Assembly (NCBI GenBank): GCA_031409275.1
Contig: JANNXA010000055.1
Coordinates: forward strand, 288,001-352,000
Length of the DNA: 64,000 nucleotides
Reading direction: 5' to 3'
DNA from: Planctomycetota bacterium
GTDB taxonomy: Bacteria > Planctomycetota > B15-G4 > SIAN01
The notes beneath the pieces are model-generated. The model saw only the letters and a list, made by a program, of their open reading frames with translations. It ran no database searches and was not told the origin of the DNA. The position numbers were made by a program, and so were the translations under genes. Below, in pieces: positions 16,296 through 33,684 of the stretch; positions within the stretch are counted from its first letter, which is position 1, and the number at the start of each line of letters is the position of its first letter.

Positions 16296-17516
16296 CTACT
16301 CGCGACGGCGCAGCAACGGCAGCGGTGCGAAACTCTCCGCGAGGAAGGCCGCTGCGTCGACCTCGAACCACTGCGCGAGCAGCGTCGCGTAGACCCGCCG
16401 GAAATCGACGCCGTACTTCACGTCGCCATCTTCGAGGTCGCGCAGATCGGGAGCGGGTCCGTGCATGCCACCCGCAACCGCTCCGCCGAGCAGCAGCAGC
16501 GGCGCCGCGGCACCGTGATCGGTCCCCTTCGAGCCGTTCTCCGCGACGCGGCGCCCGAACTCCGAGGAGACCATCACCAGGACCTCCTGTGTGGCACCGA
16601 GCGCTGCGACGTCCGCCCAGAACGCGCCGAGCGAATCGCCGAGATCGCGCAGCAGGAACGCGTGTGCATCGGCCTGGAAGGCGTGGGTGTCGTAGCCGTC
16701 CTGGCGAGCGTAGTAGGCACTGCAGTCGAGCTCGCCAGCCAGCAGCTGCGCCACCAGCTGCAACGAGCGACCCAGCGGTGTATCGGGATAGCTCGCCGTC
16801 GTGCGGCCGAGCTTCGCAGCGCGTGCCACCTGCGCCGACTGCGCGTGGGTCGCGCGCGTCGCCTCACGCAGGAAGCGGAGTGCGTCACGATCGCCCTCGC
16901 CGTTCGCGAGTTCGGCCATCGCCGCCACGCGCCCCTCCTTGCCGTCCCCCGGTCCCGAGGCAACCTCGAGGTCGGAGAAGGAGTCGACCTGAGGCGCCGG
17001 TCCGCGCGCCCCATGCAACAGCAGCGGCACGCTCCCGCCGCCCACCATCAGCGCCGGCAGTCGCCCATCGGCCACCACCTCGGGGAGTTCACCGACGCGC
17101 GCCAACCAGCCGCAGTTCGCCTGTTCCGGCGTGAGCGACGCCGTGTGCCAGATGTCGGTCGAGCGGAAGTGGCTGCGATCGGGACGCGGGTAGCCGACGC
17201 CTTGCACGATGGCGAGCTCGCCCGCCTCGAAACGTGGATGGAGCGCCGCCAGCTCGCGCCGCAAGCCGAGCCCCGGTCGCAGCGGCAGCAGCTCCTTCTC
17301 CGTGAGCCGCAGGGTCGGCCGCGCCGCGATGTACGCAGGATCGGCGAACGGCACCACGGTGTTCAGGCCGTCGTTGCCGCCCGCCAGATCGAGCAGCACC
17401 AGCCGCCGCTCGCGTCGCCCCATCCGCGCCGCGCGAGCGAAGGCGAGGCTCGGCAGCAGCGGGAGCGCCGCCACCCCGAGCGCCGTCGTCAGGAACGATC
17501 GTCGAGTCGCCATCAT
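16296..17516 (-). CDS. DUF1501 family Tat-exported protein
   Basis: TRRSFL Tat motif, LAGGNDGLNTVVP, YPRPDRSHFRS, GYDTH..Q, SEFGRRVAENGS.GTDHG. Confidence 0.9.
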   Translation of the reverse strand: MMATRRSFLTTALGVAALPLLPSLAFARAARMGRRERRLVLLDLAGGNDGLNTVVPFADPAYIAARPTLRLTEKELLPLRPGLGLRRELAALHPRFEAGELAIVQGVGYPRPDRSHFRSTDIWHTASLTPEQANCGWLARVGELPEVVADGRLPALMVGGGSVPLLLHGARGPAPQVDSFSDLEVASGPGDGKEGRVAAMAELANGEGDRDALRFLREATRATHAQSAQVARAAKLGRTTASYPDTPLGRSLQLVAQLLAGELDCSAYYARQDGYDTHAFQADAHAFLLRDLGDSLGAFWADVAALGATQEVLVMVSSEFGRRVAENGSKGTDHGAAAPLLLLGGAVAGGMHGPAPDLRDLEDGDVKYGVDFRRVYATLLAQWFEVDAAAFLAESFAPLPLLRRRE

Positions 17517-17571
17517 GGTCGTTCTCCTGCACGGCCGACCGCTTCCAGTCGAAGCGGTCGCGCCCCTCGCT

Positions 17572-18894
17572 TCACGCGATCTGCGCTTCCGGAGCCCCCA
17601 ACAACAGCTGCGCGACGCGTTGCACGCGCAACGTTCCAGCACCCGCGGCAGCGCTCGACGCGAAGTCGACGATCCGCGCGCGCGTCGTCGGATCGAGCGC
17701 GTCGTCGACCAGGATCGCTTCGAGCGTTGCCACCAGCGGCGCGCCGCCCACGCGAGCGCTCTCTCCCGCCAGCTTCTCCCAGTCGATGGTGATGCCGAGC
17801 TCGCCGCCGTAGCAGAGCTCCGCAGCGAAGCGGCCGCGCGCGAGCAGCGTGCGCGACGAGATCCAGCTGCGCCCTCCCTCCCATCCCTTCACGTTCGGCG
17901 GCGCGAAGAGTGACTGCCCCATCGCCGCCGCGGCCTCGGCGACCGCGCGATACTTGCTGCGTGCGCGCGTGCGTCGCAGCAGGCCGACGCACCATTCGAC
18001 CGGCCCGGCGATGCGCGACCGTCGAGCCGTCGTCGCGAAGAAGAGCTTCGACGCGAAGAGTCGCCGCAACGTCGTGCCGACGACCAGCTCCTCCTCGACG
18101 AGCGCGGCCGCCACCTCCGCGACCGCGGCGGCATCGGGGAGGTCCGTCACGAAGGCTCGCAAGAGCTTGCCGGCAAGGAACGGCGCGCAGGCCGCTTGGC
18201 GCGTCGCAACGTCGATCACTTCACCGCCATCGGTCAATTCGACGCCGAACAGCCTCTTGGTGCCGGTGTCGAGCGACCGCTCGTTGCGCCAGAAGAGGCC
18301 GTCGCGCACATGCCAGCCCGAGAAGGCGCGCGCCGCCTCCTGGACGTCACGCTCCGAATAGTGGCCGACGCCCAGCGAGAAGAGCTCGAGCAGCTCCCGC
18401 GCGAAGTTCTCGTTCGGGTGGCTGCGCACGTTGCTGTTGCCGTCGAGCCACACCAGCAACGCGGGGTCGCGCGCGGCCGCCTGCAGCAGTTCCCGGAAGG
18501 AGCCGCTCCCCTTCTCGCGGAAGAGCGCGTACTGCCGCCACATCCAGTCGTTCTGCTGCACCTTCACCTGGCTGGTGGCGAAGTGGTTGTGCCAGAACAG
18601 GGCGAGCTTCTCGAGCAGCGGCGCGCCGCTCTCCACCATGCGACCGAGCCACAACCCCTGCAGTCGCGGGAACTCATCGCTCTGCGAGACCGTGGGCGCC
18701 AAGGCCGCGAGCTGCGCGGCCGCCTTGCCCTCGTCGCGCGAGAAGAGGCGATCGAGCGTGGCCGGCAGTCCGGCGCTGACCGCTTCGGCGCGCTCTTCGG
18801 GCCGACTGCCAAACGCCGCGGATCGCAGCAGATGGCCGGCGGCTGCATCATCGAAGGGGCCATCGACGCCAGGTACGAACGGGGCGAGGTTCAC
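17572..18894 (-). CDS. DUF1800 family protein
   Basis: HLLRSAAFG, EKLALFWHNHFATS, NENFARELLELFSLG, PPNVKGW. Adjacent to DUF1501 as is typical. Confidence 0.9.
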   Translation of the reverse strand: MNLAPFVPGVDGPFDDAAAGHLLRSAAFGSRPEERAEAVSAGLPATLDRLFSRDEGKAAAQLAALAPTVSQSDEFPRLQGLWLGRMVESGAPLLEKLALFWHNHFATSQVKVQQNDWMWRQYALFREKGSGSFRELLQAAARDPALLVWLDGNSNVRSHPNENFARELLELFSLGVGHYSERDVQEAARAFSGWHVRDGLFWRNERSLDTGTKRLFGVELTDGGEVIDVATRQAACAPFLAGKLLRAFVTDLPDAAAVAEVAAALVEEELVVGTTLRRLFASKLFFATTARRSRIAGPVEWCVGLLRRTRARSKYRAVAEAAAAMGQSLFAPPNVKGWEGGRSWISSRTLLARGRFAAELCYGGELGITIDWEKLAGESARVGGAPLVATLEAILVDDALDPTTRARIVDFASSAAAGAGTLRVQRVAQLLLGAPEAQIA

Positions 18895-20759
18895 GGGCCG
18901 CCCTCCCGCGCCGGACGCGTGGCCCCGACGCGCGGCACCATCTGCAGCGCGAGCTCGACGCGCAACGTCGCATCGACGAGCCGCGTCGACAGCCGCAGCT
19001 TCGCCACCTCGCGCGCGATGTCGACGAGGAACGCCTGCTCGAGATTCGCCTGTTCGAGGCTCTTGCCCTGCTCCAGCGTGGCCTGCGCGATCAGCGCGTC
19101 GCGATCCTCGAGCGCCAGCTCGGCGACGTTTCTCCCATCGACTTCGATCCAGGTGAGCGCGCCGCTCGGCGCCGTCGCCATCTGTCCCACCGACAGCTCG
19201 TCGATCAGCGCCTGCATCAGTTCGACCGTCGACGCGACGATCAGCCGCGCCCCGACGCGCGCGAAGCAGGGCGATGCGTTCAGCCGCTCCGGCTCCACCG
19301 CGCGATCGTCGTCGCGGGGCAGGCGGCCGCCGGTGATCTGCACGCCGCGATGCGCGTCGACGAAGAGCTCGTAGGGCGCCTGGTTCTTCTGTGCGCTGTC
19401 GACGTTGAAGAGCGCGATGGCCATCTGCACGCCGTTGGCGAATTCGCGGCCGAGCCGCTCGTGGTCGCCGCGCGCCTGCCAGATCATCGCGCCGGCCGGG
19501 TAACGCAGCGCCGGAGGCGACGCGACTCCCGGAAAGGTCTGCCGCGAGAGCACGAAGAGGATCGACTCGTCGAGCGCCGGCAGCACTTCGTCGGGGAGGC
19601 TGCGGCCACCGAAGAAGATGCCGAGGTTCGCCTTCGCGAGCGCGAGCTCGGCGCCGACCTTGTCCTGGCACAGCTCGCCGTGATCGGCCCACAACGCCGC
19701 CAGATCGCGCCGCATCGACCAGGTGAGCAGCATCCCAGGAGGGTGCAGCGTCGGCAGCGGCTGCGCCGCGTTCGCATGGCCAAAGCCGCGATAGGCCGTC
19801 GGCAGCGGCGCATCGGCGGGCGCGGGCAACGCGACCTCGAAGACGAGCGACTCGGCGCTGCCATGCAACGACATCGGAACGACCGGTGCCCGCGCCGCCA
19901 ACGCGAAGAGGTCGCCGAGCAGCGCGGCGCCGACGAAGTCGTCCTGGCGAACGGGCAGCCACGACTCCTTGCCCGAGATCGCGGTCACGCGCGGGCCATC
20001 GAGCGCGAGCGCCACGATCGCATCCTGCGGCGCCGAAGCGCGCGCGGCGGCGACGAGTGCCGGCGGGGGCATCGAGACGCCCGCGATCGCGCGGGTGGCC
20101 AGCTCGGCGAAGCGCCCCTTGGTGCTGGCGAACAGGAGATCGCGGCCCACCTGGCCGACGTAGAGCTGCTCGCGGACGACCAGAGCCTCCACCCCACCGA
20201 GCGACTCCGTGCGCCAGGCGGGAGGCTCTTCCTTCGCCATCGCTGCCAGCGTGCGCGCCACCTGCATCAGATGGTCCGCGCGATCGAGGTCGCCGATGCG
20301 GACGGCGCCGACCAGCCCCGGCATCGTCTCGCCGGTCACCAGCGCCACGACCAGTTGCTCGCCCAGCACCGCATCGAGCAGGTCGTGCGCCTTCATGCCG
20401 CCGACCAGTTCGACGAAGCCATAGCCGGCCATCAGCTCGACGTAGGCCGGACTCTTCTGGTACTGCTTCCAGGCCGGAAGCGCGAAGAGGCGCTCCTTCA
20501 GGCTCGAGGTCGGCAGGTCGCGCATGCGCGCCCCCAACCCGCGCGCTTCGGCCACCGCGATCAGCTCCTCGGGCAGGAGCTCCGCAAGGTCGGCCACTTC
20601 GGTCGCTGGCGCCACCGCGACGACGGCCGGTTCACCACGAAGCCGCGGCCAGGCCGGTCCCGCCAGCGCCGCCAGCGGCAACCACGAGAGGAGGCCCGCC
20701 ACTGCAGCCGCCGCACCGAGGCGGCAAAGCAAGGTGCGCAGGGGTCGCGAGCGGCGCAT
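18891..20759 (-). CDS. Hypothetical exported protein (possibly DUF3352-like)
   Basis: Basic then hydrophobic N-terminus, coding-like codon use. Stop overlaps the DUF1800 start (GTGA). Confidence 0.65.
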   Translation of the reverse strand: MRRSRPLRTLLCRLGAAAAVAGLLSWLPLAALAGPAWPRLRGEPAVVAVAPATEVADLAELLPEELIAVAEARGLGARMRDLPTSSLKERLFALPAWKQYQKSPAYVELMAGYGFVELVGGMKAHDLLDAVLGEQLVVALVTGETMPGLVGAVRIGDLDRADHLMQVARTLAAMAKEEPPAWRTESLGGVEALVVREQLYVGQVGRDLLFASTKGRFAELATRAIAGVSMPPPALVAAARASAPQDAIVALALDGPRVTAISGKESWLPVRQDDFVGAALLGDLFALAARAPVVPMSLHGSAESLVFEVALPAPADAPLPTAYRGFGHANAAQPLPTLHPPGMLLTWSMRRDLAALWADHGELCQDKVGAELALAKANLGIFFGGRSLPDEVLPALDESILFVLSRQTFPGVASPPALRYPAGAMIWQARGDHERLGREFANGVQMAIALFNVDSAQKNQAPYELFVDAHRGVQITGGRLPRDDDRAVEPERLNASPCFARVGARLIVASTVELMQALIDELSVGQMATAPSGALTWIEVDGRNVAELALEDRDALIAQATLEQGKSLEQANLEQAFLVDIAREVAKLRLSTRLVDATLRVELALQMVPRVGATRPAREGGP

Positions 20760-20845: not shown

Positions 20846-22099
20846 TCACCGCACGCGGCCGGCTCGCCAACGCTCTTCCAGTTCGGCGAAGCGGGCGCAC
20901 CCGAAGCGCGCGGCAACTTCTTCGAGCGACTCGGGCGCGCCGCGCAGCCGCGGCGTCTCGAACCAGGTCGCCCGCGCGTGCGGACCGCCGCCCCCATCTT
21001 CGACGCACCACGCGGCGAACGAGCCGGCGACGCCGGCAGCGGCCGGATCCCCCTCGTTTCGGAACAGCGCGGCGAGCGGTGCGTCGGCAGGTGCAGCGCC
21101 AAGCGCCTCGCTCGCCGACGCAGCGGCCAGCCATTGAGCGGCACCCTCGATCCACCACGCCGGCGCCCCATCGAAGCGCAACTGAACGAGGGTCGCGCGC
21201 ACCAGCGCCGCGCTCGCCAGCGGAGTGGTCGCCACGCTCGCCGACTGCACGATCCCCGCGCGCGGATCGGTGCCGACGGCGGCGAATCGTTCCTCGTCGA
21301 GCCATGCCAGAACGATTGGAGCCGCGAGGTCGAGTCGACGCTCGAGTGGCCGCAAGAGCTGCTGCTCCAGGCGTCGCCGCGTCACCCGCATGGCGACGAG
21401 GTCGGGCAAGGCCGCGCGCGGCGCGACCACCACCCACGGAGCGAGCTGTTCACCGCTCCAGACGTAGTCGTCGCGTGCGCGATCGATGGCGGCCACCCAC
21501 GCCTCACGCACCGCACCCAACGACGCCGCGCCATGGAATGGGCTCGCGAGCGGCTCGAAACCCTCCGGAACCGCCGACAACTCCGTCGCCGTCGGCGGCG
21601 CCGTCGGCGGCGCAGTCGGCGGCGCAGTCGGCGGTGCGATGGGTGCTGCGATCGGCGGCGCTGCCTGAGCTGCGGTCGAAGCGGCGGGTGGTGGCGACGT
21701 CGACGGGGAAGCCGGCTCTCGCTCGGGCGGGGCGATGGCCGCCGGAGGCGCTTGCGGCGAATCGTCAGGGGTCGACGACGGCGGCGGCGAGGCGATCTCC
21801 GCAACGACCGTTGGCGACGGTTCCGACCGCGCCGTCGGCGCGGTCGAAGCGGGTGGCACGGACGGCTTCGCGGCGGCCACGAGGTCGACGGCGGGAGCCG
21901 CGTCGTCTGCGCGCGGCGACGAGGGCCGATCCGGCTCGAGCGCCAATGCCGACTCGGGCTCGCGGGCAACGGGCAACGCCATCGTCAACGCGGCCACCCA
22001 CGCCACGATCGCCAGCGCGGCGGGCAGCCAGATCCTCACCGGCCATGTGGTGGAGCTCGTCACGCAGCGGATCGTAGGCGGCGCAGGCGGGCCCGTCAC
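20846..22099 (-). CDS. Membrane-anchored Pro-rich protein with degenerate gluzincin-like domain
   Basis: TM segment IWLPAALAIVAWVAALTMAL, Pro/Ala/Thr stalk, PAWWIEGAAQW without a preceding HExxH. GTG overlaps the kinase stop. Confidence 0.6.
   Translation of the reverse strand: MTGPPAPPTIRCVTSSTTWPVRIWLPAALAIVAWVAALTMALPVAREPESALALEPDRPSSPRADDAAPAVDLVAAAKPSVPPASTAPTARSEPSPTVVAEIASPPPSSTPDDSPQAPPAAIAPPEREPASPSTSPPPAASTAAQAAPPIAAPIAPPTAPPTAPPTAPPTATELSAVPEGFEPLASPFHGAASLGAVREAWVAAIDRARDDYVWSGEQLAPWVVVAPRAALPDLVAMRVTRRRLEQQLLRPLERRLDLAAPIVLAWLDEERFAAVGTDPRAGIVQSASVATTPLASAALVRATLVQLRFDGAPAWWIEGAAQWLAAASASEALGAAPADAPLAALFRNEGDPAAAGVAGSFAAWCVEDGGGGPHARATWFETPRLRGAPESLEEVAARFGCARFAELEERWRAGRVR
21591..21638. 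repeat. 12-bp coding tandem repeat x4 (APPT units)
   Basis: GTCGGCGGCGC(C/A) units seen directly. Confidence 0.85.
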
Positions 22100-23889
22100 G
22101 ATGCGCGTGGCAATCGCAACGCCAGCACCGCACCGGCCCCGGCCACCGCCCTCAGTTCGAGTTCGCCGCCGAGGTCACGCGCGAGGCCACGTGCCAACGC
22201 CAGGCCGAGCCCGACTCCCGGCCGCGCATCGTCGTTGCGAGCCCCGCGCTCGAACGGCTCGAAGATCACTTCGCGCAACGCCGCGGGGACACCGGCGCCG
22301 TGGTCGACCACCACGACCTCGACGTCCGCGGCGGTCGCGGTGGCGATGAGCTCGATGCGCGAGGCCTCCTCGCCGCGCCCGTACTTGCAGGCGTTGTCGA
22401 AGAGGTTGAAGAGGATCTGGCCGATCGCGTCGACATCGGTGTCGAGCACCGCCGCCGCGGCAGCCGGATCGACCTTCCAGTCGCACTCGAAGCCCGCCTC
22501 GGCGGCGCGACGACGCAGCGTCGGCTCGTGCGACGCGAGCAGCTTCGCCACCGTGCAGCGTTCGCGCCGCGCCATTGCGCCTCGCTCTTCGAGACGCGCA
22601 TAGGCCAGCACGTTCTCGACCAGCGTGGCGAGGCGTCCCGATTGTTCCTTCAGCGTCTGCAGGTAGCTCTGCCGCTGTTCCGGTGCGGTCACCATCCCGT
22701 CGGCCAGCATCTCGCTGTACATGCGAAACGTCGTGAGCGGCGTGCGCAGCTCATGCGTGACCGCCGAGGCGAAGCGGTCGCGGCGCTGCGCGAGCGCGAC
22801 GCTCGAGCGGACCATCCACCAGCCGACCGCCAGCGCGCCGACGACAGCGATCCACGCCGCGGCGAGCGTCGAGTGCGTGGCCGACCAACCGCCGTCGATC
22901 ACGAGGACCTCGCCGCCGAAGCCGACCGGCGCCACCAATCGAACTGGAATGGAGGTGAGCGACGAAGGGTCGACCTCCATCGCGTTCGCCGTCATCTCGG
23001 GCGCGGGCAGCAGATCGGCGCCGGGCAGAAGGGTCGCGATCGACTCGAGCAGCTGCAGGCGCAACTGCGGCCAGTCGCACCAGATGCCCTGCAACAGCTC
23101 CTGCGCGCCGACCTCGACCCGCCGCACGAAGAAGAGCTCCGGCGTTTCGCCGCCGACCCACCACGGCACCAGCGAACCGACGACGACCTGCGCCGGCGCC
23201 TCGAGCGGCTCGGCCGCGCGGTTGTTGTAGTTGGCGTCGTTCACCGCCGTGCGCTTCACGTCGATGACCTGCTGCTGGCGCGCGACCCAGTCGCCGCCAT
23301 CCGACTTCGCGCCCGCGGTCGCCAGTTCGCACGCCTCGATCGTCACGACCGCAGCACGCAGCGAGGCCGGCGTCACCAGCGCGCGGACCTGCGCCAATCG
23401 CGCCGCGGCGTGGTCGGCGTCGAGCGTCGGGAAGTCCAGGTTTCCGGCCGTGCAGGTCGCCTGCGCGAGGTCGAGCTGATTGCCCAGCGGAACCTGCGGC
23501 GAGCTGAAACGCTGATCGCTGTCGATCTGGAAGTGGAGCCGGAAGGGCGCCGGCGCCACCAGGAGGAGCGGCGAGGCGACCAGCACGTCGCCCTTGCTCA
23601 CCGGGCTCAGGTAGCGCGTGTAGCCGCACTCCTGCGGGTAGTAGGCGAGGTACTCGAAGTAGGGGCGCGCCCCTTCGCGTGCGAGCAACGGCAAGACGCG
23701 CGAGTCGAGCCGCCAGAGCGCGTTGCGCCGCACCGCCTCGGCCTGCTCGCGCGCGCGGCCGTGCGCCTGCTCGGTGCGATGCGCCGCTTCGAGTCGCAGC
23801 GACATCCGCGTCACCAGGAACAGCGCTGCGACGACCGCGCCGGTGCCGGCGAGGTAGAGCCACTGCCAGCGCGCGCGCCGCCGTCTCAT
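22096..23889 (-). CDS. Sensor histidine kinase (HisKA + HATPase_c) with large periplasmic domain
   Basis: Two TM segments, H-box VTHELRTPLT, N-box NLFDNACKY, DHGAGV, GLGLALAR. Confidence 0.95.
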   Translation of the reverse strand: MRRRRARWQWLYLAGTGAVVAALFLVTRMSLRLEAAHRTEQAHGRAREQAEAVRRNALWRLDSRVLPLLAREGARPYFEYLAYYPQECGYTRYLSPVSKGDVLVASPLLLVAPAPFRLHFQIDSDQRFSSPQVPLGNQLDLAQATCTAGNLDFPTLDADHAAARLAQVRALVTPASLRAAVVTIEACELATAGAKSDGGDWVARQQQVIDVKRTAVNDANYNNRAAEPLEAPAQVVVGSLVPWWVGGETPELFFVRRVEVGAQELLQGIWCDWPQLRLQLLESIATLLPGADLLPAPEMTANAMEVDPSSLTSIPVRLVAPVGFGGEVLVIDGGWSATHSTLAAAWIAVVGALAVGWWMVRSSVALAQRRDRFASAVTHELRTPLTTFRMYSEMLADGMVTAPEQRQSYLQTLKEQSGRLATLVENVLAYARLEERGAMARRERCTVAKLLASHEPTLRRRAAEAGFECDWKVDPAAAAAVLDTDVDAIGQILFNLFDNACKYGRGEEASRIELIATATAADVEVVVVDHGAGVPAALREVIFEPFERGARNDDARPGVGLGLALARGLARDLGGELELRAVAGAGAVLALRLPRAS

Positions 23890-24602
23890 CCGTGCGCCAC
23901 CGGACCGGCGTCAAGGCGGCAGTCGGGCGCGAGCATGTAGCCACTCCCGCGCACGGTCACGACGACTTCGCTGCCGCAGCCGTCGAGCTTCTCCCGCAAG
24001 CGCGCCATGTGCATGTCGATGGTGCGCGTCTGCAGACCGCGCGGGTCGAGACCCCAGACCGCCCGCAGCAACTCGTCGCGCGTCACCACCTGATCGGCCG
24101 CGCTGGCCAGATAGCGCAGCAGTTGCAGCTCCTTCTCCGAGAGCTGGCGCACCTCGCCGGCCGCAAGGCGCACCTCGTGACGCGCGAAGTCGACGCAGCC
24201 GTTTGGCATCGTCAGCCGTTCGATGGGCGGCGGCCGGGTCGCGCTGCGCCGCAACACCGCCTCGACGCGAGCCAGCAGTTCACGCGCCGAGAAGGGCTTC
24301 ACCACGTAGTCGTCGGCGCCCTCCTGCAGCCCGCGCACCCGGTCGTGTTCGGCGCCGCGCGCCGTCACCAGGATCACCGGCAGCAGCGGCTTGGTACGCC
24401 GCACCGACGACAAAATTGCGAAGCCATCCTGGCCGGGGAGCACCACGTCGAGCAGCGCCAGATCGATGGGCAGCGCCAACGCCATCTCGAGGCCGGCGCG
24501 GCCATCGGCCGCCTCGTGCACGGTGTAGCCGCCGTAGCGCAAGGCGTCGACCAGGCCGCGCCGGATGGCGCTGTCGTCTTCCACCACCAGCACCGTCGCC
24601 AT
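23886..24602 (-). CDS. OmpR/PhoB-family response regulator
   Basis: VLVVEDD, LLDVVLPG, GADDYVVKPF, RTIDMHMARLREKL, TVRGSGY. Confidence 0.95.
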   Translation of the reverse strand: MATVLVVEDDSAIRRGLVDALRYGGYTVHEAADGRAGLEMALALPIDLALLDVVLPGQDGFAILSSVRRTKPLLPVILVTARGAEHDRVRGLQEGADDYVVKPFSARELLARVEAVLRRSATRPPPIERLTMPNGCVDFARHEVRLAAGEVRQLSEKELQLLRYLASAADQVVTRDELLRAVWGLDPRGLQTRTIDMHMARLREKLDGCGSEVVVTVRGSGYMLAPDCRLDAGPVAHG

Positions 24603-24607
24603 CGAGC

Positions 24608-25855
24608 TCACGTCCCGCCGCTCTCCTTCTTCGCCGGCTCCTGCTTCGCCGGCTCCTGCTTCGCCGGTTCCTTGAAGCGCAGCCCCTTCGCCGTCGCCTG
24701 GGCGCGCAGCGCGTCACGCACCGCGCGATCGAACGCGGCTGCCCCCTCCTGTCCAAGCTTCTCCATTTCGACCGCGACGAAGCACTCCCGCTTCGCGCTC
24801 ACCGCCTGGATCTTCTCTTTCAGCTCGGTGCGCTTGGACCACGCCGCATCGACGCACTGCTGCCGCTGCTCCAACGTCAGCTCGCGCATCTTCTCCGGGA
24901 AGTCCTCTTTCTTCACTTCCTCGAGCTTCAAGCTGCCGGCCTTCACCTGCTCGACGAGATCCCAGTCGCAGGTGTAGAGACTGCCGCCCTTGGTGCAGGC
25001 GCGCGATGCCGCCGTCGCCGCGTTGCAGTTGGCCGCGTTCGCGTCTTGCAGCCGCTGGTTCCCCCAGGCGACGGCCCCGGCCGCGCCGTAGGGCAGGTAG
25101 GTGTCGTTGATCGCCGTCGAGAGGGCGGCGAGCTGTGCATCGAACGGCGTCGCGATCACCACCGTCCCGTTCTGCTGGTCGATCGCCGCGAAGTGGCCGT
25201 CCGCGCGGCGCGCGACCTCCTGCCATCCGGGGGCGAGCTCATCGGCGGGGTTGCCGCAGTAGATCGCGTTCACGGCGATGCCGCGCTCGATCAGGCTCTT
25301 GCAGGCGTCGCCGAAGTGGACGACCTGATCCTGGTCGGCCGATTCGTTGCCGGCCACCACCACCAGCTTCAAGGCGTCCGCCTGCGAGGACCAATCGAGC
25401 GACTGGCCGGCGGTCGACAGCACGCGCCCGACCATCTCGGTGCCACCGTTGGTGGTCAGCGCGAAGAGACGCTGCGAGACGACATCGAGATCCTCGGTGA
25501 GCGGCGCATCGACCTTCACCCAACCGCCGTCGGCCGGATAGCCGTCGTTGCCGAAGGTGAGCAGCGCGACGCGCAACTTCGGCGTCGGCTCGGCCAACGC
25601 CAACTCGTTCACGATCGCCCACAACTTCTGCCGCGCGGCATCGAGCAGCCCGTCCATGCTGCCGCTCGTGTCGAGGCAGAGGGCGAGGTCGATCGAAGGC
25701 GCCGCGCGCGCGCTTGGCGCGGCCGCCGGCATCGCGATCGGGCGCTCGTCACCGGCCAGCGCGGGCGCGCCGACCAAACCCAGCGCGGCCGCGGCGAGCG
25801 TGGCGCGTTGCCGCCGATTGCCGCCGCCGCGAGTCGAGCCGATCGATCGCAACAT
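24608..25855 (-). CDS. Secreted VWA domain protein
   Basis: Signal peptide, MIDAS LCLDTSGSM, TNGGTE, VAGNE. C-terminal EPAKQ repeats. Confidence 0.85.
   Translation of the reverse strand: MLRSIGSTRGGGNRRQRATLAAAALGLVGAPALAGDERPIAMPAAAPSARAAPSIDLALCLDTSGSMDGLLDAARQKLWAIVNELALAEPTPKLRVALLTFGNDGYPADGGWVKVDAPLTEDLDVVSQRLFALTTNGGTEMVGRVLSTAGQSLDWSSQADALKLVVVAGNESADQDQVVHFGDACKSLIERGIAVNAIYCGNPADELAPGWQEVARRADGHFAAIDQQNGTVVIATPFDAQLAALSTAINDTYLPYGAAGAVAWGNQRLQDANAANCNAATAASRACTKGGSLYTCDWDLVEQVKAGSLKLEEVKKEDFPEKMRELTLEQRQQCVDAAWSKRTELKEKIQAVSAKRECFVAVEMEKLGQEGAAAFDRAVRDALRAQATAKGLRFKEPAKQEPAKQEPAKKESGGT
24629..24673. repeat. 15-bp coding tandem repeat x3 (QEPAK)
   Basis: CTTCGCCGGCTCCTG twice plus one variant copy. 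Confidence 0.85.
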
Positions 25856-25920: not shown

Positions 25921-28230
25921 TCACTCGCCGCCCAGGCGCACGAGCAACCGGCGTCCGCGATGGTCGAGCACGACGTCGCCGCGGAGCGTCAGCAAGGCGG
26001 CACGCCCATCGGCGACGAGTTCGTCGACGAGGGTGTGCCACGCGGGCGAGCCAAGCTCCACCAGCGGCAGCGGCTCCGCGGCTGCCGGCAGCGCGGGGAG
26101 TCCGATGATCTTCGAATCGACCCACTGGCCCTGATTGCAGAAGAAGGCGCGATCGCCGACCTGCTGCACCGTCGCGATCTCGACGCGCGCCAGCTTGTCG
26201 TTGCCCGCCGCGACGTCGACGAAGCCGTTGCGCAGATCGACCGTCGACTTCGACTTGCGGTCGTTGAAGTTGGAGCCCTGCGCCACCGCGCCGAACCCCG
26301 ACCGCTCGTTCATCGCCCGACCCGCGAGCGTGGCGTTGCACTGCTCCGTCAGCTGCGACCAGCTGCGCAGATCGGCGCCGTCGGTGGCGAGGAACGCGGT
26401 GTACTCGGTCAGCACCCCGAACTCGGTGGACAGGCGCAGGATCTCCTCCGTCAGCTCGACCAGCCGCGGATCGTTGCCGACCGGCGGCGCGAGAAATGGA
26501 GAGCGTTCGGCGCTGCCGAGCTCGCGCACCTGGTCGACCAGGAAGGCGATGCGGCGCGTGGCCCACAGACGCGGCACGAACGCGTTGCGCGTCGTGGCGC
26601 GCGCCAGATCGAGCGTGAAGCGGAAGGTGCTCGGCTTGCCGAGATGGCGGCCGCTCACCTGGAAGGCGAGCGGCGCCTCGCCCACGTACTGGCCCAGCAC
26701 GATCAGCGAATCGCCTTCGAACTGGTCGGGCAGCGACATCGGCGCCAGTTCGCGGATGCGCCGCGGATCGAGCGAGCCGTCCGGCGCGAGCGTGTCGAGC
26801 CGGACGTCGGAAAGGAGCGGCCCGTAGAGCTTCTTCCAGACTTTGGCGACGGCGAGCTCGACATCCTCGCCGGGCAGCACGTAGGTCGTGCTGGCACGGG
26901 TCACGTCGGCGATCCGATCGAGCAGCGGCGCGTTGACGTCCGCGCCGACGCCGAAGGTGAAGATGCGCCGCTGGTGGACGTTGCCATTCACGACGAGCTC
27001 GCGCAGCGTCACCTCGGACGTCGAGCGAACCGTCGGCAGGCCATCGGTCAGGAACAGCACGAGCGGCAGCGTCCCTTCGACATGTGGCTGTCGCAGCGCC
27101 TCGACGAGCGCGTCGTGGATGTTGGTGCCGCCATTGGGGCGCAGGCTGGCGAGGTAGCCGCGTGCCTGCGCGCTGCTGCTGGCATCCTTTACCACCGGCG
27201 CGGCGGCGAAAAGCGCCACCGTCGTCGAGTAGTCGATCAGGTTGAACGACTCGCCATCGACGAGCCCTTCGATGGCCTGCAGCGCGGCCGCGCGCGCCTG
27301 GTCCCACTTGCTCCCCGCCATGCTGCCCGAGCGATCGAGCACGACGGTCAGCTCGCGGCGCACCTGGGCGCGATCGCCATCGCTTCGCGCCGGCATCCCC
27401 GCCATCAACAGGAAGTAGCCGCCGCCCACTCGCGGATCGGGGTAAGCGAAGAGCGACGCGGTGAGCTCCTTCTGCTGCGTGAGGTAGCTGAGCCGGAAGG
27501 AGCCCGGATTGAGCCGCGCGCTCGCGGCGAGCCGCGCCGTCATCGAGCTGCCATCGACGCGAGCGACGTCGAGTTCGTGGCTCGGGGAATAGAGCATCGC
27601 CACGCCGGCGCGGCTGTGCACCGAGACATCGATGGTCCACGGCACTTGCGCCGCAAGCGACTCGCTGCGCGCCAGCACGTAGTCGATGCGCGCCCCGTCG
27701 CGCTCGAGCAGATGCTCGTAGCAGAGGCGCACGCGCTGCACGCCATGAGCGGGGATCGGGAAGACGCTGCTCTTCACCATGGCGTGGCCGGCGAATTCGA
27801 GCAGGCCGGGATCCTTCAGACGCCGCACGATCTCGTCGTAGATTCGCCGCGCTTCGTCGCGCGCCACGACTCGTGCCGTCGCTTCGGCCGCGCTTCCTTC
27901 GAGCTCGAACGCGGAGACGGCCGCGTCATCGGGGACCGGCAACAGCACGATCGCCTCTGCCGGCTGGCCGCCCTCGTTGCGCAGCTCGAGTTCGAGGGTC
28001 GTTGAGGCGGTCTGTTCGAGCAGCCGCACCGCGGCTCGCACGGAAGCGACATGGACCCCATTGGGTCGCGGCAGCAGGGCGAAGTTGTGGCTGGCCGGCG
28101 CGACGACGTCGGTGCAGTGCAGCAGCTCGGCGAACGCATCGCCGCCGCCAGTGGCGAACGCTTGCGGTGCCGCAGGCGGCGCGGCGGTCAGGGCGAGGGC
28201 GAGGGCGAGGAGCGTGGCGACAGCAACCAT
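25921..28230 (-). CDS. Secreted VIT + VWA domain protein (inter-alpha-trypsin inhibitor heavy-chain-like)
   Basis: Signal peptide, VIT signature EARRIYDEIVRRLKDPGLLE, MIDAS LDRSGSM, GGTNI, FLTDGLPT, LWATRRI, TEYTAFL. Confidence 0.9.
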   Translation of the reverse strand: MVAVATLLALALALTAAPPAAPQAFATGGGDAFAELLHCTDVVAPASHNFALLPRPNGVHVASVRAAVRLLEQTASTTLELELRNEGGQPAEAIVLLPVPDDAAVSAFELEGSAAEATARVVARDEARRIYDEIVRRLKDPGLLEFAGHAMVKSSVFPIPAHGVQRVRLCYEHLLERDGARIDYVLARSESLAAQVPWTIDVSVHSRAGVAMLYSPSHELDVARVDGSSMTARLAASARLNPGSFRLSYLTQQKELTASLFAYPDPRVGGGYFLLMAGMPARSDGDRAQVRRELTVVLDRSGSMAGSKWDQARAAALQAIEGLVDGESFNLIDYSTTVALFAAAPVVKDASSSAQARGYLASLRPNGGTNIHDALVEALRQPHVEGTLPLVLFLTDGLPTVRSTSEVTLRELVVNGNVHQRRIFTFGVGADVNAPLLDRIADVTRASTTYVLPGEDVELAVAKVWKKLYGPLLSDVRLDTLAPDGSLDPRRIRELAPMSLPDQFEGDSLIVLGQYVGEAPLAFQVSGRHLGKPSTFRFTLDLARATTRNAFVPRLWATRRIAFLVDQVRELGSAERSPFLAPPVGNDPRLVELTEEILRLSTEFGVLTEYTAFLATDGADLRSWSQLTEQCNATLAGRAMNERSGFGAVAQGSNFNDRKSKSTVDLRNGFVDVAAGNDKLARVEIATVQQVGDRAFFCNQGQWVDSKIIGLPALPAAAEPLPLVELGSPAWHTLVDELVADGRAALLTLRGDVVLDHRGRRLLVRLGGE

Positions 28231-28300: not shown

Positions 28301-28345
28301 AACCTACGGCCGCGAAGCGGCGCGGTCGGTCACAGCCGTGCAACA
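28301..28345 (-). promoter_or_regulatory. Putative OmpR-type direct repeat and -10 element
   Basis: GTCACA-N5-GCAACA (28329-28345, 11-bp period) and minus-strand TAGGTT (28306-28301). Confidence 0.35.
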
Positions 28346-28360
28346 CGCGCGAACGCGGTC

Positions 28361-29839
28361 TCAGCGCTGCACGAAGACGCCGTTGTTCTCGGTCGCGAGC
28401 CGGCGCAGGAATTCGGCGTCGATCCCCTTGCCAAGCCCGATCGTGTGGAGGATCACCCGCTTCATCGGATTCAGCCGGCGCACGAGCTGCAGCGAGCGGT
28501 CGGGCGGATCGCGTCCGCCCGGCAGGAACGGCTGGCCGTCGGTCAGCAAGAAGATCGTGTCGACCGAGGCGTCGTAGTACTTGTCGCCGGCGCCGCGGCC
28601 CGCGATGGCGAAGGCGTTCTCGAGCGAGTCGTAGATGTTGGTCGCGCCGCCTGGGCCAAGCTCCGCCACCCACTTCTGTGCCTTCTTGATCCGGTCGGGC
28701 GTCGCCTCGACCAGCCCCTTCTGCCAGCGATCGGCGCCGTTGCTGAAATAGACGATGTCGAACTTCACCTGCGGCGGCAGCTCGCCCAGCGCGCGGATCA
28801 GCTCCTTCTTCGACGCCTCCATGCGGCTCTCTTCGCCGGCGGGCGCGGGGATCGGCTGCGTCTCCGCCGCGTCGCCCCACTTCGGATTCGTCATCGACAC
28901 CTGCATCGAGCCCGAGCAGTCGATCACGTAGACGATCGAACGGGCGTCCTGCGGAATGCCGTGGAAGTAGCCATTCGCCTGCATCTGCACCGCCGGCTCG
29001 CCGCCGCCGAGCTCGACCTGCCCCGACGTGAAGCGCAAGCCTTCGGCCGCAAACCAGCTCTTCCAAGCGTTGGGACTCGCTCCGAGCTTCTGCCGGGTGA
29101 GGATCTCGAGTGCCGCGGCGAACTTCACCTGCGTGCGACCGCTCTCCTTCTCGAGCCGCAGCACCATCGGCTCGATGGCCGCGGGCACCACCAGCTTCGC
29201 GAGCGCCAGCGCCGCCTGCTCGCGTACCGTGGCTTCGGCGTGGTCGATCAACGGCAGCAGCGTCGCGCCCAGTTCCTTCGCGCGCGGCCCGAGCTCCTGC
29301 GCCAGCAGCAGCAGCGCCACCCAGTCGTCCTGGCGCTTCAGCGTCGGTGCCGCCTTCACCAGGACCGGGAGCAGCGGCTCGCCGACCGGCGCGGCGCCAT
29401 GCAGCGCCGCGAGCTTGAAGGTGAGCCCGACCGCCTCATCCCCCAGCACTCGACCGACCAACCAGACCAGCCCTTCGGTGGAATGGAGGTAGCCGAGCCG
29501 CTCGATGACGCGCGCCTGCGCCTTGCGGATCGGGTCGATCTTGGCGCGCCGCTCGACGATCTCGCCGTCCGAAAGGTCGCCCTTGGTCAGCTCCGCATGC
29601 GCGAGCTTCTCGGTCGACTGCGCCGCCGCTTCGAGCGCGAGCGACGCCTTGAGCAGGAGCTGCGCGATGGCCAACGAGTCGTAGGGACCGAGCCCATCGA
29701 GCGCGTCGACGAGTTCGACCGCCCGCTCCTTGGGATTGCGCAGGTACTTCTCGACCGTCGCGATCGCGTCCGCCTCGGCGTCGCCGCAAATCCGCGGTGA
29801 CGCCACGAGGAGCGCGAGGCAGGCGAGCAACGCCGTCAT
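28361..29839 (-). CDS. Exported HEAT-repeat + VWA domain protein
   Basis: Signal peptide, HEAT-like VREQAALALAKL, YFHGIP, MIDAS VIDCSGSM, GGATN, FLLTDGQP. Confidence 0.85.
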   Translation of the reverse strand: MTALLACLALLVASPRICGDAEADAIATVEKYLRNPKERAVELVDALDGLGPYDSLAIAQLLLKASLALEAAAQSTEKLAHAELTKGDLSDGEIVERRAKIDPIRKAQARVIERLGYLHSTEGLVWLVGRVLGDEAVGLTFKLAALHGAAPVGEPLLPVLVKAAPTLKRQDDWVALLLLAQELGPRAKELGATLLPLIDHAEATVREQAALALAKLVVPAAIEPMVLRLEKESGRTQVKFAAALEILTRQKLGASPNAWKSWFAAEGLRFTSGQVELGGGEPAVQMQANGYFHGIPQDARSIVYVIDCSGSMQVSMTNPKWGDAAETQPIPAPAGEESRMEASKKELIRALGELPPQVKFDIVYFSNGADRWQKGLVEATPDRIKKAQKWVAELGPGGATNIYDSLENAFAIAGRGAGDKYYDASVDTIFLLTDGQPFLPGGRDPPDRSLQLVRRLNPMKRVILHTIGLGKGIDAEFLRRLATENNGVFVQR

Positions 29840-29961: not shown

Positions 29962-29988
29962 GAACTTCGCGCGAGGAAATCAGTCGAA
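29962..29988 (+). promoter_or_regulatory. Putative ECF-type promoter upstream of the ECF sigma gene
   Basis: GAACTT-N16-TCGAA, the same geometry as the site at 28285-28258. Confidence 0.5.
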
Positions 29989-30089
29989 CAGCGCGCGAAC
30001 GGCGTCGTTGACGCGATGCTGGCGGGCAACGCCAGCGCGGTGCCATGACGACGCCCGAAACGCGCTAGCGGCCAGGAGCGGGACCGACC

Positions 30090-30650
30090 TTGGACGACGC
30101 CCTCGACAGCGGGAACGACGACGGAGGCGACCTGCGTCGCTTCCTCGCCGGCGACCGCGAGTGTTTCGCCAAGGTGCTCGCCCGCCATCAAGGAGCGCTG
30201 CTGCACTACGCCCACCACCGCCTGCGCGATGCGACGGCGGCGGAGGATGCGGTGCAGGAGACCTTCCTGCGGCTCTTGCGCGAAGCGGCGGCGTTGACCG
30301 CGAACCGATCGTTGGCGGCGTGGCTCTTCCACGTCTGCCGCAACGTCTGCGCCGATGCGGCGCGCAAGGAGGTTCGCATGCAGCAACGAGAGCGGCGCGT
30401 CGCGGTCCCCGACCTCGCGCCGGCCGCGACCTGGAGCGCCGAGCAGCAAGAAGAGCAGAGCAAGGTGCGCGAACTGCTCGACGCGCTGCCCGACCACGAA
30501 CGCGAGGTGCTCACCTTGAAGGTGCACCACGGCAAGAGCTACCGCGAGATCCAGGCGCTGCTGGACACTTCGCTGCACGACGTCTTCAGCACGGCGCAGC
30601 GCGCATTGAAACGCGTCGCCGCCGGATTGCGCGCGGCCGGACTCGCCTGA
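30090..30650 (+). CDS. ECF RNA polymerase sigma-70 factor
   Basis: Region 2 AEDAVQETFLR...AWLFHVCRN, region 4 LDALPDHEREVLTL...SYREI. TTG start after AGGAG. Confidence 0.9.
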   Translation: MDDALDSGNDDGGDLRRFLAGDRECFAKVLARHQGALLHYAHHRLRDATAAEDAVQETFLRLLREAAALTANRSLAAWLFHVCRNVCADAARKEVRMQQRERRVAVPDLAPAATWSAEQQEEQSKVRELLDALPDHEREVLTLKVHHGKSYREIQALLDTSLHDVFSTAQRALKRVAAGLRAAGLA

Positions 30651-30717
30651 CGGCGCCGCCGCGACCGCCACCAAGTTTCGAACCCACCACGGCGCGCTTC
30701 GCGCTGGGAGAATCCCG

Positions 30718-33684
30718 ATGAACTCCGACCACGACTCGAACCGCGACTCGACCCCCGATGACGCCGCGCGCCCGCAGGGCTGCGCGCCTTTCCTCGACGA
30801 CCTCCCCCATCTGGTGCTCGGCGAGCTGGCGCCCGAGCGCGTCGCCGCCGTCGAAGCTCATTGCGCAAGCTGCGCCGATTGCCGCGCCGAGCGCGAGCTG
30901 CTGACCAAGTCGGCGCAACTGCTGCGACGCGACGCGACGCCGGCCGCGCCGGTGCTGCAACTCTCGACGGCGCGCCAGCAGGCGCTGCTCGAAGCGGCGG
31001 CGCGGACGGCGCCGGTTGCACCGCTCGCGCCGGTGCGCCGCTTCTGGAACCCGCGCCGCGCACTTGCGGCGGCGGCAGCGATCGCCGCGGTCGCGATCGG
31101 CAGTCAGTGGCTGTGGCGCGGGTACGACGTCGCGCCGCAACGGAACGGAACCGAATCGACGTACGAACTCGCGTCCATTCAACCGCCCGTAGGCCTTGGC
31201 GCGCCGCTTACGCCGACAAACGAACTCGCCGATCGGCTGAGCGCGGCGGCACAATCGGGCGATCGCGACGCCGCCCAATGGGCGATCACCGAACTGGCGG
31301 CAACCGATGTGTCTCTCTCGGTCGAGCAGCTCGCCTCACTCAGCATCGAACTCGCGCAAGCGGACCAATCGGCGGCGGCGATCGAGTTGTTGAAGCAGGC
31401 GCCGCCCGAGATGCAGCTCGACTCGGAGTCCCGCATGAAGCTGCGCAGGGTCGCCGCTTTCGTCGCGGCGAAGGCGCCCGCAGACGACACCTCGGCAGGG
31501 CTCGCCCAGCTCAACGCTCTCGGATACCTCGGCTCCGAATCGGAAGCCGTGCTGGACGCGGGGCTCGTCGATGACGGTGTCGACGAACTAGCGCGCCGCG
31601 AACTAGCGCGCGGCGCTGCGGCCGCCGCGAGCACGCCAGCCGCTGCGGTTGCATCGTCGCTCGAGACGACGCTCGATGCGCTTGGGTACGTGGGCCCCGT
31701 TGATGAGGCCAAGGCACTCGAAGAGCAGCGCGATTTGAAGTCGCTCCTCACGCTCGCCCGCGAGAGCGTCCCGGCGCCCGCGACGGACTCCTTCTTCACT
31801 GACCTCGGCGACGGCAGCGCAAGCGTGGCCAACGCACGGGCGCGCCTCGAGAACCTCTTCGAACTGTCCGAGGAGTCGATCCGGAGCCTCGACTCGATCC
31901 CGCAATGGGACCGTGGCGTGGACGACTACGGCGTCGGTTTGCCGCAGCTCGGCGCGTCGATCGCCGCTTCGATCCCGCAGCTCGCGACCCTCGCGCCGAG
32001 CGAGCTCTTTGCGCTGGAAGCGTCGCTTGGGCGCGCGGCCGCCGCGGGCGCCCGGCTCGACGTCGATGCGGTCGTGAAGTCGTGCCTCGACCAGCTCGCG
32101 CCGCGCCAGGGCGAGCCGCCACGCGACATGTTCTTCCGCTGGTTCGGCGACCATCCCTTCGTGCCGACGCGCGTCGACACGCTCTCCACCTTCGGGATGG
32201 ACGTCGACACCGCGAGCTACAACCTCGTGCGCAGCTACCTCGAGAAGGGGACGCTGCCGCCCAAGGTGGCCGTTCGCACCGAGGAGTTCGTCAACGCGTT
32301 CCGCCAGGAGCTCGCGGCGCCGGCGGCGGACAGCAACGACGTCTTCGCGATCACCACGGAACTCGCGCCAAGCCCGTTCGGAGGCGAAGGGCGCCACCTG
32401 CTGCGCGTCGGCCTGAAGGCGCGCGAGATCGCGAAGGAGGCGCGCAAACCCGCCGCGCTCACCTTCATCCTCGATGTCTCGGGCTCGATGGAAGAGGGCG
32501 GGCGCCTCGAACTCGTGAAGCAATCGCTGCGGCTGCTCGTGGCGCAGCTCGATGAGCGCGACACGATCGGCATCGTCGTCTTCTCCGAGAACGCGCGGCG
32601 CGCGCTGCCGCCGACGCGCGCCTCCGATGCCGCGCGCATCTTCGCGGTGCTCGACTCCTTCCGCCCGGAGCAGTCGACCAACGCCGACGCCGGCCTGCGT
32701 CTGGGCTACGAGATGGCGGTCGAGCAGCTGCGCCCCGACGCCGACAACCGCGTCATCCTCTGCTCCGACGGAGTCGCCAACGCGGGCATCACCGATCCCG
32801 CCTGGCTCTCGGCGCGCATCCGTGAGTGCAAGGGCAAGCGCATCTACCTCACGTCGATCGGCGTCGGCATGGGCAACCACAACGACGCGCTGATGGAGCA
32901 ACTCGCGGACGAGGGCGACGGGCAGTGCCACTACGTCGACGACCTCGCCGAGGCGAAGCAGATCTTCGTCGACGGCCTGACCGGCACCCTCTCGACGGTG
33001 GCACGCGACGCCAAGATCCAGGTCGAGTTCGATCCACTTGCCGTGCGCGCCTTCCGGCAGCTCGGCTACGAGAATCGGGCGATCGCTCACGCCAACTTCC
33101 GCAATGACCGCGTCGACGCGGGCGAGGTGGGCGCCGGCCAGTCGGTGGTGGCGCTCTACGAGGTCGAGCTCGCCGCGGACGCAACCGGGCCACTGGCGAC
33201 CGTGCGCTGCCGCTACGAGGATCCGCGCAACGCCACCGTGCGCGAACAGGCGCGCCTCGCCTTCGCCGCGGAGTCGGGAGCCACCGTTGCCGCGATGCCG
33301 GCACGCTGGCGGCTCGATGCCGCGGTGGCCGAGTTCGCCGAGCTGCTGCGCCAGAGCGTCCATGCTCGCGACGGCTCCTTCGGTGCGGTCGAACGGCTGG
33401 CCGAACCGCTGGTGGCCGAGCTGCCGGGAGATGCCGACGTGGCCGAGTTCGTCGCGCTGGTGAAGCAGGCGGCGCGACTGCCCGATCTCCTGCCGCGTCG
33501 CACCGAGCTCACCCGCTGCGTCGACGAGATCAAGAAGGTGCGCTGCTGGCAGCGGGAACTCGAACAGAGCGACCCGCCGCAGCGGCAGGCCAACTCCGCG
33601 CTGATGCAGCAGCTCGAGGAGCAGAATCGCAAGCTCGAGCAGGCGCTGCGCGACGCGCTGGCGAACGCGGCCAACGCGCGTTGA
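30718..33684 (+). CDS. zf-HC2 anti-sigma factor fused to a YfbK-type module (vWF_A + VWA + DUF3520)
   Basis: HxxxCxxC (HCASCADC), TM segment, STFGMDVDTASY, VRTEEFVN, MIDAS LDVSGSM, SDGVAN, GYENR, DAGEVGAGQSVVALYE. Confidence 0.9.
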   Translation: MNSDHDSNRDSTPDDAARPQGCAPFLDDLPHLVLGELAPERVAAVEAHCASCADCRAERELLTKSAQLLRRDATPAAPVLQLSTARQQALLEAAARTAPVAPLAPVRRFWNPRRALAAAAAIAAVAIGSQWLWRGYDVAPQRNGTESTYELASIQPPVGLGAPLTPTNELADRLSAAAQSGDRDAAQWAITELAATDVSLSVEQLASLSIELAQADQSAAAIELLKQAPPEMQLDSESRMKLRRVAAFVAAKAPADDTSAGLAQLNALGYLGSESEAVLDAGLVDDGVDELARRELARGAAAAASTPAAAVASSLETTLDALGYVGPVDEAKALEEQRDLKSLLTLARESVPAPATDSFFTDLGDGSASVANARARLENLFELSEESIRSLDSIPQWDRGVDDYGVGLPQLGASIAASIPQLATLAPSELFALEASLGRAAAAGARLDVDAVVKSCLDQLAPRQGEPPRDMFFRWFGDHPFVPTRVDTLSTFGMDVDTASYNLVRSYLEKGTLPPKVAVRTEEFVNAFRQELAAPAADSNDVFAITTELAPSPFGGEGRHLLRVGLKAREIAKEARKPAALTFILDVSGSMEEGGRLELVKQSLRLLVAQLDERDTIGIVVFSENARRALPPTRASDAARIFAVLDSFRPEQSTNADAGLRLGYEMAVEQLRPDADNRVILCSDGVANAGITDPAWLSARIRECKGKRIYLTSIGVGMGNHNDALMEQLADEGDGQCHYVDDLAEAKQIFVDGLTGTLSTVARDAKIQVEFDPLAVRAFRQLGYENRAIAHANFRNDRVDAGEVGAGQSVVALYEVELAADATGPLATVRCRYEDPRNATVREQARLAFAAESGATVAAMPARWRLDAAVAEFAELLRQSVHARDGSFGAVERLAEPLVAELPGDADVAEFVALVKQAARLPDLLPRRTELTRCVDEIKKVRCWQRELEQSDPPQRQANSALMQQLEEQNRKLEQALRDALANAANAR

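Follow-up and report, generated by a model that had tools for sequence, protein, structure and literature searches.

The subject of this study is a cluster of genes for VWA-domain proteins at positions 16296 to 33684 of a 64,000-nucleotide stretch of Planctomycetota DNA (assembly GCA_031409275.1, contig JANNXA010000055.1, positions 288,001 to 352,000; our contig C55), referred to here as the window. The host genome is 93% complete and its nearest relatives are Planctomycetota. The cluster is a lineage-specific juxtaposition of four separately inherited blocks and not one system: genes for a VIT-VWA protein, a stand-alone VWA protein (VWA1), a response regulator and a sensor histidine kinase; an ECF sigma factor gene with a YfbK-type anti-sigma gene; a gene for an exported protein followed by DUF1800 and DUF1501 genes; and an orphan gene for a HEAT-like VWA protein. 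A conserved box upstream of the first block suggests that this block is an operon activated by its own regulator.

The gene order around VIT-VWA orthologues was compared in 20 relatives. Genomes of the genus retained it, and so for the most part did those of the family, within the limits of the contigs; beyond the family, VIT-VWA, VWA1, regulator and kinase alone remained together. In a set of 80 kinase loci, many of them short, gathered with an alignment of the sensor part of the kinase, the regulator gene adjoined the kinase gene in 79, a VIT-VWA gene lay upstream on the same strand in 47 and VWA1 was present in 27. The ECF, YfbK, HEAT-like VWA, exported-protein and DUF1800/DUF1501 genes occurred in three or four of these loci each, all from close kin of the window.

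The main survey covered one sample of 301 Planctomycetota genomes, in which the kinase family was found in 108 genomes, a VIT-VWA orthologue (called at an E-value of 1e-100) in 75, YfbK in 79 and the exported protein in 52. VIT-VWA and kinase occurred together in 66 of the 75 VIT-VWA genomes and were linked within 13 kb in 48; the expected number was 26.9, a figure that assumes independence, while related genomes inflate the counts. YfbK and kinase shared 38 genomes, against 28 expected, but were no more than 20 kb apart in just 3, all of the window's genus; for the exported protein the corresponding numbers were 25 and 2. A quick regulator tree placed VIT-VWA in all three of its main clades. 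Each of the two regulators has its own predicted promoter, and neither promoter type was found before genes of the other's block. Since the blocks are unlinked outside the family and stable on their own, we conclude that their proximity in the window is specific to the lineage.

An earlier note on this DNA had wired all four VWA proteins to both the two-component system and the sigma factor, and had itself offered unlinked sub-blocks in related genomes as grounds for giving up that picture; unlinked is how they were found beyond the window's family. The connection to the two-component system stands for VIT-VWA and VWA1, which are most likely its outputs, and the other two VWA proteins fall out of it. 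Neither the ECF/YfbK pair nor the exported-protein block is tied to the kinase.

A de novo motif search in 44 VIT-VWA upstream regions yielded the box GTTACA-N5-GTTACA, with a log-likelihood of 416 compared with 91-98 in three shuffles. Among the 38 non-redundant training sites, a -10 element was found at an identical offset from the box in 32 and within +/-1 of it in the other 6. When the window's own family was left out of training, the box of the window was the top site of the whole genome (score 20.4; next-best 15.4). It starts 17 nt past the stop codon of the HEAT-like gene and, because it lies after that stop, the HEAT-like gene is outside the predicted regulated transcript. No box was found before the sigma, HEAT-like or DUF genes of the window, and the next-best sites of the genome (15.4 or below) precede no family known elsewhere as cargo. 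A perfect 18-bp palindrome is present at window positions 28276-28259 (-), inside the predicted VIT-VWA leader.

Of 37 loci not used for training, 5 had no usable upstream sequence; in 22 of the remaining 32 a sense-strand box was present upstream of the regulator, whatever gene came first. The genes behind these boxes encode VWA1, DUF4139, thioredoxin-like or ARPP-1/SIMPL proteins, or the regulator itself. The controls gave no site in 215,739 antisense, 379,392 downstream and 659,178 control bases (1.25 Mb). Among 80 metagenome loci, 40 had more than 2 kb of upstream sequence, and 29 of these carried a box at a score above 15. In a diverged member, L268, boxes precede both the regulator and the VIT-VWA gene. 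By these sequence comparisons, the box tracks the two-component system and not any single cargo. OmpR-type sites are 11-bp repeats; because the box follows the two-component system and has such a repeat, the regulator is likely to bind it.

Thirty-three near-consensus sites far from the kinase were picked by sequence without knowledge of the downstream gene, and 12 of them precede families that neighbour the kinase elsewhere (7 DUF4139, 4 thioredoxin-like, 1 VWA1). Further distant targets include BamB-like propeller, C39 peptidase, CAP and carboxypeptidase-regulatory proteins, and most of the other identified ones have signal-peptide-like starts. Three cargo proteins scored above the MuiA cut-off.

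Several observations concern the box in individual genomes. At L164:2670-2723, L170:2293-2343 and L265:7924-7956, boxes stand back to back between the regulator and a thioredoxin-like gene that diverges from it, which suggests two-way control. An exported family with weak thioredoxin-like similarity and no Pfam match above cut-off recurs behind the box (L117:2140-3318, L121:7747-9135, L310, L313, L321). In two large low-GC genomes, G111 and G049 (L319-L324, L330, L337), the regulator/kinase pair is an orphan, and several strong boxes are dispersed in front of VWA1, DUF4139 and other exported genes. The tandem DUF4139/MuiA-like genes of the window genome (G000:C27:111625-114936) have no high-scoring box. 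At a single locus (L077:8200-9039) the gene immediately before the regulator is class D beta-lactamase-like; it has no box and was not counted as cargo.

The sensor part of the kinase, 306 periplasmic residues, matched no Pfam or NCBIfam family. The family that it defines comprises 2596 representatives at 50% identity, and Myxococcus, Archangium and Prosthecobacter have named homologues. A structure model (pLDDT 77) gave a dCache domain, 7k5n, as best structural match (Z 8.7, root mean square deviation 3.9, 175 residues aligned), and the top matches were overwhelmingly Cache and dCache sensors; the sensor is thus predicted to be an extracytoplasmic Cache fold between two transmembrane segments. 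Class D beta-lactamase, BlaR1 and MecR1, proposed by Foldseek as sensor relatives, were rejected (E-value 0.009 or worse, TM-score below 0.2, root mean square deviation 12-22). The sensor contains a variable insert of 99-382 residues in which the motif [DE][YWF]xxR was found in 97 of the 137 sequences parsed from 150 representatives, compared with 5.6 expected after shuffling.

For VIT-VWA, the best match among solved structures was human ITIH4 (9c4f, E-value 6.9e-26, residues 55-575) and the best NCBIfam match was TIGR03788, at an E-value of 6e-56 and 190 bits, below the cut-off of 551.65. The metal ion-dependent adhesion site (MIDAS) is invariant in its DxSxSM and TDG elements in all 41 aligned orthologues. 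The protein thus resembles ITIH4 and ITIH1 in having a VIT-VWA core with a full MIDAS, over 520 residues, and differs from them in its C-terminal domain. ITIH heavy chains carry a DPHF-type Asp-Pro autocleavage site, whereas DPH is absent from the VIT-VWA translation. A sortase motif, [LI]PxT[GAS], was found in none of 45 VIT-VWA-family tails, only one of which had a hydropathy above 1.8, and no sortase of family PF04203 was found in the host genome.

The model of VWA1 (pLDDT 86) has a VWA fold, with BatB and integrin I-like domains as structural neighbours. In its third MIDAS loop GNE replaces TDG in 21 of 27 orthologues, the other 6 being of the D type, and the threonine of GGT is kept in 15 of the 27 only. 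The earlier note had described the MIDAS as intact in all four VWA proteins, and this applies fully to VIT-VWA but not to VWA1.

In the mechanism that we propose, the kinase would phosphorylate the regulator, and a regulator dimer would occupy the pair of half-sites, which are spaced 11 bp and take the place of a -35 element, and activate its own operon. The same box elsewhere would govern genes for MuiA/DUF4139, thioredoxin-like, SIMPL, ARPP-1 and other exported proteins. The stimulus would probably be peptidoglycan or envelope damage, and VIT-VWA would stabilise the envelope by metal-dependent binding, in the manner of Shewanella SO2195. The architecture, namely separate blocks with an autoregulated operon, appears to us very probable, and given that architecture a role in envelope stress, argued from analogy, is reasonably probable; the two taken together are favoured by somewhat better than even chances.

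The closest characterised system is that of Shewanella, where SO2195, a TIGR03788 protein, is induced via the adjacent PghKR and prevents spheroplast lysis under beta-lactams and D-cycloserine (PMC13712847). As in PghKR (PdsS/PdsR)-SO2195, a two-component system stands beside an exported VIT-VWA protein, here in the 47 kinase loci mentioned; the system of the window differs in having another sensor and another cargo, and no sortase. It most likely works like PghKR-SO2195 by analogy, and we do not count it as a member because membership fails on score, tail, sortase and kinase. In Pseudomonas, D-cycloserine and osmotic shock lead to overexpression of MuiA (review PMC10418997). MuiA/DUF4139 proteins, a frequent cargo of the box in other genomes, resemble the SbrI/SbrR-MuiA system in being outputs of an envelope-linked regulator. 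There, however, control is by an ECF sigma factor, and the operon of the window has no DUF4139 gene.

Several points weigh against this mechanism. The proposed stimulus is drawn from analogy, and Cache domains mostly bind small molecules, which gives no pointer to envelope damage. The kinase is not an orthologue of PghK/PdsS: its TIGR03785 score is 63.3 compared with 612.2 bits and covers the catalytic core only. SO2195 has a sortase tail, whereas the VIT-VWA protein of the window has neither a sortase motif nor a C-terminal transmembrane segment. As to the box, it was missing in 10 of the 32 held-out loci, 4 of them cut by contig ends and 6 intact, including L077; of 7 additional VIT-VWA upstream regions, only 3 contained it; and in most of the 30 genomes scanned a loose version of the pattern was no commoner than its reversed control. 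Selection of the 33 distant sites was by eye, and the score threshold of 18 was chosen after the scores were known. GTTACA-type repeats are common among OmpR-family sites, so that another regulator could share the box.

An alternative to envelope stress is surface colonisation or polymer capture, in which the Cache domain would recognise a small molecule that is a nutrient or comes from a surface, and an adhesive or matrix layer would be built from the exported VWA, MuiA-like and propeller proteins. The nearest structures to the sensor, which are small-molecule-binding dCache domains, and the structural neighbours of VWA1 are compatible with this, and MuiA both promotes biofilms and is found in them at higher levels (PMC7603352). 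However, no adhesin repeats, transporters or catabolic enzymes were seen among the recurrent cargo, and the only characterised bacterial VIT-VWA protein found to be controlled by a two-component system serves envelope integrity. We consider colonisation unlikely.

The operon could also be autoregulated with VIT-VWA (or VWA1) acting in addition as a periplasmic co-sensor or feedback inhibitor of the kinase: an acidic residue of the kinase insert would complete the metal site of the MIDAS, and a competing ligand would release VIT-VWA and leave the kinase active. This would account for the invariant MIDAS, for the retention of an acid-aromatic-x-x-Arg motif in an otherwise variable insert and for the tight co-inheritance of VIT-VWA and kinase, and a MIDAS can bind extended peptides (PMC7159879). 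In eukaryotic alpha2delta/CACHD1 proteins VWA and dCache also occur together, with the VWA inserted into the Cache domain (PMC8915833), whereas they are separate proteins here: no VWA domain was inserted in or fused to the kinase in 18 long representatives or 7 long-insert kinases, 25 in all, nor was a fusion found among longer proteins, which is weak evidence. From the alpha2delta/CACHD1 group, structure 8x90_B was among the matches of the sensor model (Z 7.0), a score that reflects the shared Cache fold only. The insert motif, moreover, was as common in kinases without an adjacent VIT-VWA gene (22 of 26) as in those with one (30 of 43), and 42 of the 108 kinase genomes have no VIT-VWA match at the E-value used. 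A co-sensor role is, in our judgement, distinctly improbable.

A stricter form of this idea, motivated by the VWA-in-Cache architecture of alpha2delta and by peptide binding at the MIDAS, makes VIT-VWA both product and brake of the kinase: its MIDAS would grip the acidic residue of a conserved R[NS]xxE[YWF]xAR helix in the Cache insert, and envelope damage would titrate VIT-VWA away. If true, it would amount to a bacterial counterpart of alpha2delta in which VWA and Cache are two proteins, and it would run a phylum-wide envelope regulon; we rate it slightly lower still than the general co-sensor.

VIT-VWA might instead be a periplasmic protease trap, with a regulon that counters the proteases of predators or competitors. 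Its best structural match, ITIH4, traps proteases via its VWA domain (PMC7793589), and one distant box target is a C39 peptidase protein, but the similarity stops near residue 575, no bait region was identified and the remaining cargo families have no known inhibitor role, which makes a trap very improbable. Least probable of all is the single cross-wired sensing and adhesion system of the earlier note, with four VWA proteins, both regulators and DUF1800/DUF1501: two of the four same-genus genomes share the entire gene order, a third has most of it and a same-family genome largely retains it, overlapping reading frames lead from VWA1 to the gene behind the kinase and from the exported-protein gene to DUF1800 with no convincing terminator between, and a distant DUF1800/DUF1501 pair adjoins an ECF/YfbK pair in another genome (L240:8565-11263), but synteny beyond the family largely refutes it, YfbK follows the kinase far less closely than VIT-VWA does (38 genomes for 28 expected, compared with 66 for 27) and each promoter type is restricted to its own block.

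The sigma/YfbK pair, on the plus strand and divergent from the remaining genes, appears to be an independent self-regulating unit. The ECF gene was directly upstream of the YfbK gene in 14 of 16 fetched loci, the other two being cut by contig ends. The elements of the predicted ECF promoter were the same in 6 of 6 same-family sequences, and CCAAG...CGT[TC] was present in 13 of 14 more distant ECF/YfbK loci; the pattern, drawn up after the sequences had been viewed and without a control, is consistent with autoregulation. Its strict form had 16 matches in the genome; judged by eye, just one of them, that preceding the sigma gene, is placed like a promoter, and another falls within the exported-protein gene, in its 3' end (window 19057).

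We take YfbK_C (PF12034) to be the former DUF3520. Pairs of this kind are known: in ECF226, which includes Planctomycetes, and in ECF289, a one-transmembrane anti-sigma factor with VWA and DUF3520 is encoded behind the ECF gene, and a YfbK-type VWA has already been proposed as sensor for its sigma factor (PMC7826278). The anti-sigma factor of the window, at position +1 and with one transmembrane segment, VWA and DUF3520, agrees with both groups. The promoter of its relatives, CCAAG/CGT[TC], resembles the CCCAAGGA/CGTCTxA given for ECF289, and the window's family has the variant CGAACAG. ECF289 is confined to Proteobacteria, whereas the present host belongs to Planctomycetota; ECF226 fits the phylum, but its promoters are called unconserved in the supplement, in contrast to the conserved one here. 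Tandem pairs of short YfbK-type genes were seen in genomes of family f57 (e.g. G157:C2:181585-184668).

Of the 52 matches of the exported protein, 24 loci from other genomes were fetched, and in 23 of them a DUF1800 gene comes directly after it. DUF1800/DUF1501 is a known operon pair of unknown function (PMC5122149). In the window's family the exported protein/DUF1800/DUF1501 block is attached downstream of the kinase operon and may be read through; a scan for sigma-70 promoters and terminators gave no signal above shuffles.

The HEAT-like VWA protein had 12 other tblastn matches in the host genome, and its closest paralogue is encoded within about 5 kb of another kinase/regulator pair (G000:C33:181732-188869). 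In a same-family genome (L252:7494-11102) its place is taken by a gene for a 1202-residue ECF sigma factor fused to carboxypeptidase-regulatory repeats. The HEAT repeats of the earlier note were visible by eye only, Pfam giving none.

The protein encoded behind the kinase, termed a pseudo-peptidase in that note, had 3 homologues in a protein search and no Pfam, PDB or family match. A PxWWxxG stretch is reminiscent of the gluzincin Glu helix; the label is without database support.

The features of the cluster are listed below. Domains were called with Pfam and NCBIfam, and signal peptides and transmembrane segments were judged by hydropathy and by eye. The genes claimed previously were all present at about the given places and with the given domains, and the four DxSxS motifs (DTSGS, DRSGS, DCSGS and DVSGS) were confirmed. 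So were the start/stop overlaps: there are four, of 4 nt each, between VWA1 and regulator, regulator and kinase, kinase and the lineage-restricted gene, and exported protein and DUF1800. As the note had said, no MoxR AAA+ gene lies beside a VWA gene in the window, relatives' loci not having been searched for MoxR; five strong AAA_3 matches occur elsewhere in the genome, the nearest about 32 kb past the window end.

Features of the VWA gene cluster (positions in the window)
Feature	Position	Strand	Support or remark
DUF1501 protein	16296..17516	-	Pfam E-value 6.4e-24; twin-arginine-like start TRRSFL
DUF1800 protein	17572..18894	-	Pfam E-value 2.9e-100
Exported protein without Pfam family, first gene of DUF1800/DUF1501 block	18891..20759	-	52/301 genomes
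Lineage-restricted membrane-anchored protein, Pro-rich linker (pseudo-peptidase)	20846..22099	-	Behind kinase in close relatives only
Sensor histidine kinase, two transmembrane segments, periplasmic Cache-type domain	22096..23889	-	HisKA and HATPase; structure model
Copy of kinase insert motif, DWVAR, residues 200-204	23278..23292	-	Conserved [DE][YWF]xxR
OmpR/PhoB-family response regulator	23886..24611	-	Response_reg and Trans_reg_C; Pfam and NCBIfam
Exported stand-alone VWA protein (VWA1), 415 aa, helical C-terminal extension, variant MIDAS	24608..25855	-	Pfam VWA; structure model
Exported ITIH-like VIT-VWA protein, 769 aa, first gene of predicted operon	25921..28230	-	Pfam VIT and VWA
Predicted -10 element TAGGTT	28301..28306	-	Conserved distance from box
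Predicted response-regulator box GTTGCA-N5-GTGACC	28328..28344	-	Family consensus GTTACA-N5-GTTACA
Exported helical-repeat (HEAT-like) VWA protein	28361..29839	-	Pfam VWA; large paralogous family
Predicted ECF promoter CGAACAG-N15-CGTT	29984..30010	+	Kept in same-family sequences
ECF sigma factor	30090..30650	+	Pfam Sigma70 r2 and r4 and TIGR02937 above cut-off
Predicted anti-sigma factor: HxxxCxxC zinc finger, one transmembrane segment, linker, vWF_A-VWA-YfbK_C	30718..33684	+	zf-HC2 weak, E-value 0.002

The cluster is flanked by nadE (14590-16272, -) after DUF1501 and by an ArsR-methyltransferase gene and metH (36367-41078, +) after YfbK. Close relatives have the same flanks, as expected if the gene order is simply inherited. 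A cobalamin riboswitch (RF00174, 66 bits) at 14334-14542 (-), upstream of genes for an exported protein (end at 12807) and a BtuF-like binding protein (11836-12762), is unrelated to the finding.

The ECF226-like sigma/YfbK pair was already known, and the cluster as first drawn is not special. No description of the kinase family, its operon or the box was found in literature searches, which covered few subscription papers. What is new is a predicted two-component regulon that has VIT-VWA as an output but no sortase, and in which an unnamed Cache-type sensor is combined with interchangeable exported cargo. The box is precise enough to find targets in other genomes, with a defined regulator, and the target list (ITIH-like VIT-VWA, the VWA family, MuiA/DUF4139, thioredoxin-like, SIMPL and ARPP-1 proteins) would join several unknown exported families in one pathway. 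Kinase homologues in cultured bacteria, AKF86623.1 of Myxococcus fulvus 124B02 and others in Archangium, make this testable. If the stimulus is cell-wall damage, the system would be a candidate envelope-stress response for about one third of the Planctomycetota genomes searched, and bacterial VIT-VWA proteins could protect the envelope without sortase.

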